From positions 42,343 through 106,342 of the forward strand of contig JAJDXE010000004.1 of NCBI GenBank assembly GCA_022825265.1: a stretch of 64,000 nucleotides of DNA. The letters run 5' to 3'. Shown here in pieces: positions 52,983 to 54,674 of this stretch. Origin of the DNA: Dehalococcoidia bacterium. GTDB taxonomy: Bacteria > Chloroflexota > Dehalococcoidia > Bin125. Position 1 is the stretch's first letter. Every line of letters starts with the position of its first letter. The notes beneath the pieces were generated by a model, which had not been told where the DNA came from, ran no database searches, and saw only the letters and a program-made list of their open reading frames with translations. The translations under genes and the position numbers were made by a program.

Positions 52983-54674
52983 ATGGCCGAATCCTGCGAC
53001 ATCGTCGTCATCGGTGGCGGACCGGGCGGTTCGGCCTGCGCCACGTTGCTCGCCGATCAGGGCTACCGCGTCACGCTGCTGGAGCGCGCCAAATTCCCCC
53101 GCGAACACGTCGGAGAGTCCCTCCTACCGGCCAGCATTCCGGTACTCGAGCAGATCGGAGTCATGCCCGCGATCGAGGCCGCCGGATTCGTCGTCAAGCG
53201 CGGCGCCACACTCGTCTGGGGCAAGGATCCCGACCCCTGGAGTTGGTACTTCGCCGACGACCCCGGCCAGCGCCCCACCTCCTTCCAGGTCGTCCGCTCC
53301 GAGTTCGATCACATCCTGCTCAAGAATGCGGCCGAACACGGCGTCGACGTACGCGAAGAGCACCAGGTCCTCGATATCCATTTCGATGGAGCGCGAGTCG
53401 CGGGCGTCAGCTACCTGCACGGTGGACAAGCGGGCGAAATCAACTGCCGGTTCCTCGTCGACGCCAGCGGTCAGGCCGCGCTGCTCAGTCGCAAGCTGAA
53501 TCTGCACCAGTGGGACGACTACTTCAAGAATCTCGCCGTCTACGGCTACTACCAGGACGCCAAACACCTCGATCCGCCCAACAACGGCAACATCTTCATC
53601 GAGTCCTACGAACACGGCTGGCTCTGGAAGATTCCGCTGCACACCGGAGTCACCAGCGTCGGCGCCGTCGTCGATAAGGAGATCGGCCAGCAGGGCCTGC
53701 GCGAACTGGGTGCCAGGGGATTCCTCGAAGCACAGATCGCCGAGGCGCCGAATACCAGGGAACTCCTGGCCGGGGCGACGATGGTCGACGAGCCGGACGT
53801 CGAACGCGACTGGTCCTACACCTCGAAGCAATTCGCCGGCGATGGCTACGTGCTCGTCGGCGATGCCGCCTGCTTCGTCGATCCGCTCTTCTCCTCCGGC
53901 GTCCACCTCGCGCTGGGCAGCGCAACGCTCGCGGCCAACTACGTCAAGTCGGCGCTCGAACAGCCCAAGGCCCGAGATCAGGCGGCGCAGCTCTACGAGT
54001 CGCTCTATCGCAAGCAGTACGACTACTTCCACCTGACCGCCCAGCTCTTCTACGGGACCAACCGCAGCGCCGATTCCTACTTCTGGGAGGCCCGCCGCAT
54101 CCTCGGCGACGACGACACCACACCCCGAGAAGCCTTCGTGCGAGTCGTCAGCGGGCAACCGCCGCAGGGCTACGAGCGTGCCGTCATCGAGCATGGCGAG
54201 CTACCAGCCGAGATCGAATCCGAGGTCCGTCGCCGCGACGAGCGAGCCGAACGTCGCCGTCGAGAGACCGAGGCCCTGACGGCTGAATCCGGAGCGTTGC
54301 TCCGCGCCGTCCCGACGTTGCCGGCCCACGTCAAGCTCGAACAGCGCCGAGCACTCGCCGGCGCCAACTTCCAGCAGGCGTTTCAGCTCGTGGTCGAGAC
54401 AAGCCAGGGCCGTTCGGAGCCATTTCCAGTGACGGCAGTCATGGCTGCCTGCATCGGGCAGATGAACGGGCGGACATCGCTCGGCGACATCGTGGCGACC
54501 GTCAATCGACAGCACAATCTCCGCGGTGAACAAGGCCTGCGCACGATCATCGAGCGCGATCTCCCACCCCTGATCGAAGCCGGCCTGGTCGACGTGACCA
54601 CCCGCAACGCCGGACGCAACGATCCCTGTCCCTGCGGCTCGGGCAAGAAGTACAAGCGCTGCCACGGTCGCTGA
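52983..54674 (+). CDS. Flavin-dependent halogenase-like FAD oxidoreductase (PltA/Bmp2-type) with a C-terminal SEC-C metal-binding motif.
   Basis: Contains GxGxxG ([10 protein letters not shown]), GESLLP...[11 protein letters not shown], WxWxIP (GWLWKIPL) and FxDPxxSxG (FVDPLFSSG). The C-terminal 14 aa are [14 protein letters not shown]. Confidence 0.65.
   Translation: [563 protein letters not shown]

Follow-up and report, generated by a model that had tools for sequence, protein, structure and literature searches.

An importer-linked flavin-dependent halogenase of the CndH/CmlS lineage with a C-terminal SEC-C motif in Dehalococcoidia

The DNA analysed here, referred to as the window, comprises 64,000 nucleotides of contig JAJDXE010000004.1 from a Dehalococcoidia bacterium, and houses a gene whose product the original prediction, made from the DNA alone, had described as a flavin-dependent halogenase fused to a C-terminal SEC-C zinc-binding motif. 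Both parts of that description are borne out, in that the protein exceeds the cutoffs of the Pfam models for Trp_halogenase (PF04820; E = 5.9e-42, 144.5 bits against a cutoff of 21) and for SEC-C (PF02810; E = 1.7e-10, 41 bits against a cutoff of 20.4, residues 545-563 covering model positions 1-19 of 19), and the two domain assignments are, on sequence grounds, highly probable. The gene and its features are as follows.

52983..54674, + strand: complete gene (ATG start from the list of open reading frames, stop codon included) for a three-module protein of 563 residues, with a halogenase core, a helical linker plus winged helix, and a SEC-C tail
52989..54158, + strand: flavin-dependent halogenase catalytic domain of the CndH/CmlS 'variant B' type, residues 3-392, assigned from PF04820, from similarity to CndH and CmlS, and with Foldseek
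53013..53030, + strand: GxGxxG dinucleotide-binding motif GGGPGG, residues 11-16, with G11, G12, G13, P14 and G16 invariant
53115..53117, + strand: codon for Glu45 in a GES motif, equivalent to CmlS E44 in the alignment to 3i3l
53196..53198, + strand: codon for Lys72, the putative catalytic (chloramine-forming or hypohalous acid-directing) lysine
53619..53636, + strand: WxWxIP motif WLWKIP, residues 213-218
53874..53900, + strand: FxDPxxSxG motif FVDPLFSSG, residues 298-306
54171..54305, + strand: helical connector, residues 397-441, with one long Arg/Glu-rich helix (helices at 397-404, 409-434 and 438-441, assigned by DSSP on the models)
54309..54602, + strand: winged-helix domain, residues 443-540, three strands followed by three helices, resembling PqqD and RiPP recognition elements (RREs) and shared with CmlS
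54615..54671, + strand: SEC-C motif or SecA-like metal-binding domain (MBD), residues 545-563, with putative ligands C548, C550, C559 and H560 and conserved S553 and Y557, assigned from PF02810 and SecA peptides

The start codon is preceded by a GGAGG-like sequence resembling a Shine-Dalgarno ribosome-binding site (tcggaggcgaggc ATG), and a protein database entry (P0001) is 100% identical to the 563-residue product. An AlphaFold model, for which an alignment of 62 sequences served as input, has an overall predicted local distance difference test score (pLDDT) of 83.4, with most of the catalytic domain at 85-98 and the tail as a flexible segment of lower confidence.

By all of the sequence and fold criteria applied, the protein belongs to the flavin-dependent halogenases. 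The closest solved structure is that of the chondrochloren halogenase CndH (3e1t; E = 2.2e-97, 331 bits, residues 3-392), followed by the chloramphenicol halogenase CmlS (3i3l; E = 9.6e-81) and FasV (8zop; E = 5.8e-79), while ChlB4, RadH, PltA, Mpy16 and Bmp2 give weaker matches (E = 1e-54 to 1e-41; 5e-52 for PltA and 1.7e-41 for Bmp2). The label 'PltA/Bmp2-type' used in the original prediction therefore names the right broad group, variant B, but judged by these alignments CndH and CmlS are nearer. Structures of enzymes that are not halogenases score far lower, namely geranylgeranyl reductase (3oz2; E = 6e-16, 62 bits) and the peptidyl-Trp dihydroxylase QhpG (7ctq; E = 4e-10, 44 bits), so that the protein groups with halogenases and not with the reductases or monooxygenases that had been named beforehand as the contrary outcome. 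Fold comparison leads to the same place: the top 39 Foldseek matches in the PDB consist of 32 halogenases and seven chains of 3nix, an uncharacterised Cytophaga flavoprotein/dehydrogenase (ranks 14-20), with geranylgeranyl reductase at rank 40 and QhpG at rank 44. The protein also stays below the cutoffs of all the narrower family models considered, which include the CmlS equivalog NF033113 (320.5 bits against 900, with no cml genes nearby), the NCBIfam models for QhpG (198.5 against 240), LodB (146.5 against 400) and GoxB (98.7 against 400), and geranylgeranyl reductase TIGR02032 (128.6 bits against 158.8); nor are there qhp, lodA or goxA genes (qhpC, lodA and goxA encoding the respective substrates) beside the halogenase gene.

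In an alignment of 62 relatives with 49-89% identity, K72, E45, W213, W215, I217 and P218 are all invariant, as are F298, D300, P301, S304 and G306 and also D276, which occupies the position of the FAD-linking aspartate of CmlS (D277). The GWLWKIPL and FxDPxxSxG motifs that had first drawn attention to the gene are thus present and fixed, and the lysine proposed to form the chloramine is K72, which corresponds to K76 of CndH and K71 of CmlS when positions are counted along the structure alignments (the 3i3l chain has a 20-residue tag). K72 and WxWxIP are moreover invariant in both of the Dehalococcoidia clades described below, in about 90 species. As these are the residues that distinguish halogenases from hydroxylases, their invariance argues that hypohalite chemistry has probably been kept.

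After the catalytic domain the model continues with a long helix (409-434) and then a set of three strands and three helices (450-532), beyond which come a short strand and the tail. The Foldseek alignment with CmlS spans the entire length, in 563 columns, so the winged helix is to be regarded as a CmlS-type domain and not as a new insertion. It matches the three-strand plus three-helix fold of PqqD and the RREs of enzymes acting on peptides that are synthesised ribosomally and modified after translation (RiPPs); RRE-containing enzymes include MibB, MadB, TglI, ThcOx, PbtF, NisB, TigE, LynD, MccB and SuiB. The window protein has no match to Pfam PqqD (PF05402), which appears below threshold in four of 24 relatives (best E = 2.5e-5), with P0066 reaching 22.5 bits against a cutoff of 23.4. 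In QhpG, likewise built from a catalytic domain and a winged helix, the polypeptide substrate is held in a pocket between the two domains (PMC7876137), and by analogy the RRE-like winged helix probably helps to hold a peptide-like or protein-borne substrate here.

The last 21 residues of the protein match the SecA zinc-finger peptides 1sx0, 1tm6 and 1ozb and the C-terminal peptide of YchJ (9l6b), with E values of 5e-8 to 1.5e-6. The ligand pattern is CxCx8CH, and the Ser and Tyr conserved in SecA MBDs are also present, in keeping with a published definition of the motif that includes a conserved Ser and an aromatic residue (10.1101/613315). Many full-length tailed relatives ending GRN[DEQ]... 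are found in the protein database, down to about 58% identity, while a query consisting of the 42-residue tail region returned only fragments of 74 residues or fewer. No other SEC-C-tagged genes were found near the halogenase genes in the 1.77 Mb of loci scanned.

A scan with one genome per species provided 80 loci, all in metagenome-assembled genomes (MAGs) of Dehalococcoidia/Chloroflexota. In a neighbour-joining tree without support values, the window gene and 41 other loci form clade A, and 46 loci form its sister clade B, whose proteins are about 50% identical to those of clade A and end ...ILYVDGxI. The tail occurs in 33 clade A loci, basal branches included, and in none of clade B. The two clades are best viewed as functionally distinct paralogues and not orthologues, because several complete MAGs carry both; MAGs with a tailed clade A gene as well as a tail-less clade B paralogue are OZ250140 (L022 and L052), OZ244584 (L025 and L058), OZ253504 (L062 and L065) and OZ251529 (L031 and L066).

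The tail is under strong purifying selection and is not a chance extension. Over 17 tail codons in the 33 species-level clade A loci, the proportion of synonymous differences (pS) is 0.61 and that of non-synonymous differences (pN) 0.039, a pN/pS of 0.064; for the 17 codons of linker directly before the tail, pN/pS is 0.535. The four ligands and the Ser are invariant in all 33 loci, with Tyr at the aromatic position in 30 and Phe in three, and the conserved positions include, besides the ligands, the basic residues KKYKR that correspond to contacts with SecB and the ribosome. The tail has also been lost at least three times within clade A, and two of these losses have left decaying remnants. 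In L001, L011 and L040 a TGA stands at the Gly codon of GRND with a decaying remnant after it (L001:11620-11690, and the same position in the other two), and in L002 (10580-10650) and L016 (11640-11760) a TGA stands at the first Cys codon and is followed by LCGSGERLNRYHGL or by a frameshifted remnant. Changes found after the stop include His to Arg, Cys to Tyr and KKY to MNH. In an open-ocean subclade (L032 and L033; proteins P0063 and P0064) the SEC-C tail has been replaced by a Cys-free tail rich in Arg and Lys (TRAERRRFERQLQKK). Such quick decay after the stop, set against tight conservation before it, shows that the tail is kept by selection where it is translated. Read-through of the TGA at the first Cys codon (P0034) as selenocysteine was considered and rejected, since the downstream ligands are mutated (Cys to Tyr) and the sister locus L016 is further decayed and frameshifted. 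One further clade A copy, P0065 (L036:10001-11800), has a frameshift near residue 458 and runs into permease-like sequence, and is either a pseudogene or an assembly error.

A second tailed lineage came to light in an exhaustive HMMER search of 1.84 billion representative sequences, which returned 22,266 hits, 1,069 of them at E<=1e-30, with a motif scan of the best 150. Protein P0268 (612 residues) carries a SEC-C tail at its end and has a core 43% identical to that of the window protein. It belongs to clade C, which consists of about 19 clusters with 52-100% identity, PF02810 being present in all (P0268, P0401-P0417, P0419; L091:9001-10839, L094:9001-10896). Clade C keeps the catalytic Lys (GFVPK[FYH]GATYVWG) and the motif GWIWYIPL. 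Its nearest relatives, at 50-55% identity, are tail-less, and several tail-less lineages separate it from clade A in the tree. The linker before the tail is basic and 25-40 residues long in clade C but only 6-8 residues long in clade A; genome GC content is 57-59% in clade C against 65-71% in clade A; and for the invariant Ser clade C uses AGT or AGC, as against TCN in 33 of 33 clade A loci. Because tree position, linker, GC content and Ser codon all differ, two independent acquisitions are favoured, and judged by these sequence traits the clade C tail was probably gained separately. The neighbour-joining tree being unsupported, a single ancient gain followed by many losses is a less likely but conceivable alternative. 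The fusion of halogenase and SEC-C motif is, on the sequences compared, real, selected and apparently recurrent.

Several of the clade A MAGs are from sponge metagenomes: SB06xx bins are listed among sponge-associated genomes (PMC7883664), and the prefixes IRC, RHO and COS appear to match sponge species of another study (PMC8163846). The subclade with the exchanged tail consists of open-ocean assemblies.

The genes flanking the halogenase gene are the following.

52243..52914, - strand: divergently oriented gene for a 223-residue protein, 68 nt upstream of the halogenase gene, with a sub-threshold NIPSNAP match (E = 0.028) as its sole family match
54843..56738, + strand: solute-binding lipoprotein of family 5 (Opp/Dpp/Nik type), PF00496 with E = 2.6e-52, the ATG and ribosome-binding site being conserved in the alignment
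56890..57855, + strand: ATP-binding cassette (ABC) importer permease 1, PF00528 and PF19300, syntenic across clade A
57858..58760, + strand: ABC importer permease 2, PF00528, syntenic across clade A, with no ATPase gene after it

The neighbours named in the original prediction are accordingly present as far as Amidohydro_2, the solute-binding protein (SBP; SBP_bac_5) and two permeases are concerned, but the NIPSNAP-like protein is such only below threshold. The 223-residue protein is kept at this position only in the closer genomes, those with a halogenase at least 76% identical, and the genes upstream vary among clade A loci, being for ribosomal proteins and RadC, a glyoxalase, a GFO/IDH/MocA protein, or the 223-residue protein. 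Downstream, the importer adjoins the halogenase gene in about 39 of 42 clade A loci, whereas in clade B, at relaxed thresholds, it is adjacent in none of 46, and an SBP-like gene lies within 10 kb in three. The arrangement is not rigid. The SBP gene is inverted in L006 and L038 and replaced by paralogues of 37-43% identity in L023, L024, L027, L029, L030 and L037, and in L032, L033, L087 (3873-9481) and L088 (3511-9119) the halogenase gene lies 20-33 nt after permease 2 instead of before the SBP gene; in this last subclade a small, oppositely oriented MauE-like gene comes next. Conservation of the ABC importer linkage supports the view that the enzyme works on something taken up from outside, away from a classical natural-product pathway. 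The contexts of clade C vary as well, one locus lying with a 2-oxoacid dehydrogenase operon and another being followed by an importer of the SBP_bac_1/8 type. An exclusive link between tail and importer was considered and is weakened by clade C loci without an adjacent importer and by a tail-less subclade beside four SBP genes (P0079, 55% identical; L090:1-7755), in which the halogenase gene is divergent from four tandem SBP_bac_5 paralogues.

The SBP encoded at 54843 has a signal resembling those for twin-arginine translocation (Tat), the lipobox LVGCG, and poly-Asp and Gln-rich linkers; it is weakly similar to NikA, Opp, Dpp, GsiB and CntA proteins and reaches no equivalog cutoff. The window contains a second importer module, and the two SBPs (54843-55010; 31860-32082) share a leader that runs from an aromatic-Trp element through a basic stretch and an SRRSLL twin-arginine motif to the lipobox LVGCG, and then into a run of five or six Asp residues and a long Gln-rich low-complexity linker. 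The 'NYW...RR' sequence at the SBP N-terminus was considered as a site of recognition or modification and set aside, since the signal peptide is built alike in SBPs that are not linked to a halogenase gene, the one at 31783 among them. Each module (31783-35710; 54843-58760) consists of one SBP and two permeases and lacks ATPase genes, as do the related loci, and no ABC_tran domain was detected among the window reading frames scanned (at least 150 residues in 38-64 kb and at least 220 residues in 1-38.6 kb, with smaller frames covered in the tightly packed stretch around the halogenase gene). The importer ATPases must therefore come from genes elsewhere, which may be shared ones. No terminator, promoter consensus or Rfam family reaches threshold between the halogenase and SBP genes, which in some genomes lie as little as 50-75 nt apart. 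Upstream of the SBP gene, at 54720-54790, the sequence GAAAAAyTTCAsATTGmC...GrTAATyTC is conserved in the closest relatives and has no Rfam match; in the window it includes TTGACG-N17-TAATTT, and it may be a promoter or operator.

Among the larger window reading frames scanned there is no gene for a flavin reductase, carrier protein, polyketide synthase (PKS), nonribosomal peptide synthetase (NRPS) or RiPP, in agreement with the earlier remark that no reductase, carrier protein or biosynthetic cluster is adjacent. The housekeeping genes of the window encode RecG, arginyl-tRNA synthetase, a class I Trp/Tyr-tRNA synthetase and a PBP1-type penicillin-binding protein; the catabolic genes encode coenzyme A (CoA) transferases, enoyl-CoA hydratases, an acyl-CoA dehydrogenase, luciferase-like monooxygenases, a sulfatase and amidohydrolases, a repertoire that is typical of SAR202-like Dehalococcoidia. 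Reading frames of 278 residues at 19420 and 310 residues at 21727 have no Pfam hit. A trio of genes for DUF1800, DUF1501 (sulfatase-like) and NHL-repeat propeller proteins (window:46586-50381) recurs within 10 kb of halogenase genes in both clades and in varied orientations, being found also in L004, L028, L031, L034 and L035 and in clade B loci L041, L052, L058 and L065. GC skew is positive from about 2 to 34 kb (most strongly at 6-20 kb) and negative from about 44 kb, with a cumulative peak near 40-43 kb, and this switch could be a replication-related change of polarity.

Taken as a whole, the interpretation marginally favoured by these results is that the protein is a true halogenase, whose substrate is imported and possibly peptide-like and whose tail is a docking tag, although the claims about the substrate and about the tail's partner, taken singly, are held with less confidence than the domain assignments. 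The enzyme would be a two-component, FADH2-dependent halogenase of the CndH/CmlS lineage, receiving reduced flavin from a reductase encoded elsewhere. Its catalytic domain would generate HOCl or HOBr from reduced flavin, O2 and halide, the hypohalous acid passing through a tunnel lined by WxWxIP to Lys72. Core and winged helix would together form the substrate pocket, which may accept a peptide-like or protein-borne substrate, and the compound halogenated would be an imported one, possibly a peptide or an aromatic amino-acid derivative, in a step not belonging to a classical biosynthetic cluster. By analogy with SecA and AscA/YecA, the Cys3His tail would most likely be a small, basic, metal-stabilised docking tag, which would hold the enzyme at an acidic surface, for example the ribosome, an anionic membrane, or a partner associated with a chaperone or transporter. 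The MBD of AscA suffices on its own for binding to SecB and to ribosomes (10.1101/2020.07.21.215244), and membrane binding by SecA is disrupted when its MBD loses metal (10.1101/613315). The exchange of the tail for another basic one in L032 and L033 fits electrostatic docking.

A number of findings weigh against this interpretation. The complete set of halogenase motifs also occurs in proteins not proven to be halogenases, for example 3nix, and no flavin reductase is linked to the gene. The likeness of the window protein to PqqD is structural only, and neither precursor peptide nor RiPP tailoring genes occur in the window and the related loci examined. At least three losses of the tail have left the gene and the adjoining importer in place, so that the tail is dispensable in some lineages. 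SecB is not expected in Chloroflexota, a phylum not known to have it. The linkage to the importer reflects one ancestral event, so that 39 of 42 against 0 of 46 amounts phylogenetically to a single observation; these genomes are in any case rich in SBP_bac_5 modules, with two in this window alone. In the best-sampled clade C context (L091-L093) there is no adjacent importer, so that tail and importer are separable.

The tail could instead mark an enzyme that modifies peptides or proteins and is recruited to the machinery of translation or export, the winged helix serving as a genuine recognition element for a nascent protein or a peptide and the MBD parking the enzyme on the ribosome, as it does in SecA and AscA. 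Tyr, Trp or His residues of a polypeptide would then be halogenated or hydroxylated during or after translation, and a candidate substrate would be a secreted protein, for instance the SBP encoded next to it. We consider this unlikely, but it has several points in its favour: the adjoining gene does encode an exported protein, the winged helix is structurally RRE-like, and the nearest relatives that are not halogenases, QhpG, LodB and GoxB, act on a residue of a protein whose gene adjoins theirs. CndH and CmlS, too, work on substrates bound to carrier proteins. Besides the binding of ribosomes and SecB by the AscA MBD, there is the proposal that MBDs form a toolkit for adding new functions to the Sec machinery (10.1101/2020.07.21.215244). 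Other findings speak against the idea. No aromatic residue is conserved in halogenase-linked SBPs alone, in what is a weak test of 46 linked against 6 unlinked sequences; the conserved N-terminus is a trait general to the family, its design recurring in the SBP at 31783, which is not linked to a halogenase gene; paralogues of 37-43% identity take the place of linked SBPs in some loci, and clade C has a different SBP family; and the signal is Tat-like and not Sec-like. Nor is there any small precursor reading frame or other RiPP gene.

Also unlikely is that the enzyme is a catabolic flavin monooxygenase without halogenating activity, which hydroxylates or dehalogenates an imported aromatic compound and carries the halogenase motifs as a leftover. 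Its surroundings have a catabolic flavour (Amidohydro_2, GFO/IDH/MocA, CoA-transferases, luciferase-like monooxygenases and the importer), and the fold family does include monooxygenases, with NCBIfam scores of 198 bits for QhpG and 146 bits for LodB. These scores, like that for geranylgeranyl reductase, are nevertheless under their cutoffs, the PDB match to QhpG reaches 44 bits against 331 for CndH, and leftover motifs would be expected to drift, whereas K72 and WxWxIP show no variation over two clades and about 90 species. The fold family is not known to include a dehalogenase. The suggestion in the original prediction of a catabolic rather than a biosynthetic role is thus upheld in part: linkage to an importer and absence of a cluster agree with it, but its specific form, dehalogenation or hydroxylation, is not supported. 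Four things lay outside that prediction: the winged helix shared with CmlS, the conservation of the tail across the clade together with its repeated loss, the second tailed clade, and the wider occurrence of MBD fusions to diverse proteins.

A more far-reaching version of the protein-modification idea, and one that must be called quite doubtful, is that SEC-C-tailed halogenases are an unrecognised class of peptide or protein halogenases, in which an RRE-like grip holds the substrate while the tail parks the enzyme at ribosome or membrane machinery. Halogenation would then be coupled to protein synthesis and export, or to peptide uptake, in sponge-associated bacteria, and the arrangement would have evolved independently in two lineages.

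It is improbable that the tail is chiefly a regulatory switch, the Cys3His site sensing oxidants (among them the hypohalous acid made by the enzyme itself) or metal and altering activity or oligomeric state, or acting by autoinhibition. Zinc-thiolate sites react fast with HOCl, and the tail lies on a flexible segment of the model predicted at lower confidence. The C-terminal tail of SecA is autoinhibitory and MBDs bind iron (10.1101/613315), while oxidation of Cys149 in YchJ leads to dimerisation through a disulphide (PMC13377102). Against this, conservation extends beyond the ligands to the basic KKYKR contacts, and the Cys-free basic tail of L032 and L033 fits electrostatic docking better than redox sensing. 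Finally, that the tail is a neutral hitch-hiker, a captured 3' end of secA without function, might seem to be favoured by at least three losses of the tail without loss of the gene, but this is effectively refuted by the selection analysis (pN/pS of 0.064 at a pS of 0.61 over 33 species), by the quick decay of remnants past the stop, and by recurrence of the tail in a second clade.

A flavin-dependent halogenase is usually taken to mark a natural-product cluster, and such enzymes are in demand as biocatalysts. Here, a conserved halogenase lineage lies outside any cluster and is tied to nutrient importers, in abundant uncultured Dehalococcoidia of sponges and the sea, and it carries a tail for which docking to ribosomes, SecB and membranes is all that has been demonstrated elsewhere. 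Should the tail indeed localise the enzyme, the protein would be the first halogenase to carry its own targeting device, and a test case for SecA-like MBDs as a portable toolkit that recruits activities to cellular machinery; if the tail is only a modest affinity tag, it is a tidy but ordinary domain fusion. These proteins are also candidates for halogenating peptides or dissolved organic matter in the sponge holobiont, a setting in which many organohalogens have no known producer. Such a fusion appears not to have been described before, to the extent that a literature text search found no paper combining 'SEC-C' and 'halogenase', and that the SAR202 and halogenase papers examined do not mention the family, whose members are labelled 'tryptophan 7-halogenase' or 'FAD-dependent oxidoreductase' in the databases. 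The principle of the fusion is not new, because MBD fusions to many types of protein are already recognised: they have been described with 'at least 18 different functions', and MBD proteins other than SecA were found in 92 of 156 species (10.1101/2020.07.21.215244).

Compared with known systems, the window protein shares with CndH and CmlS the overall fold, GxGxxG, the catalytic Lys, WxWxIP, FxDPxxSxG and the Asp equivalent to D277 of CmlS, and with CmlS the winged helix as well. It differs from both in having a SEC-C tail, and in its setting, since CndH and CmlS belong to PKS/NRPS-type clusters and act on carrier-bound substrates, while the window gene lies beside an ABC importer with no cluster. 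In QhpG, LodB and GoxB, flavin monooxygenases that modify proteins in the biogenesis of tryptophylquinone cofactors and are structurally closest to CmlS, the same plan of catalytic domain, winged helix and interdomain pocket is found, and their genes lie beside that for the substrate protein; QhpG, a hydroxylase, has Arg70, Val72 and Trp74 in the channel, whereas the window protein keeps the halogenase Lys and scores only 44 bits with 7ctq. Relative to PqqD and the RREs of TfuB1, TbiB1, NisB and LynD, the winged helix here is no new fusion but an inheritance from the CmlS-type halogenase lineage. The tail is closest to the MBDs of SecA, AscA/YecA and YchJ, with a near-identical motif of about 20 residues, the same CxCx8CH pattern, and the same position at the extreme C-terminus after a linker, but its host is here a halogenase, where elsewhere it is a translocation ATPase, a chaperone (UPF0149) or an NTF2-like domain.

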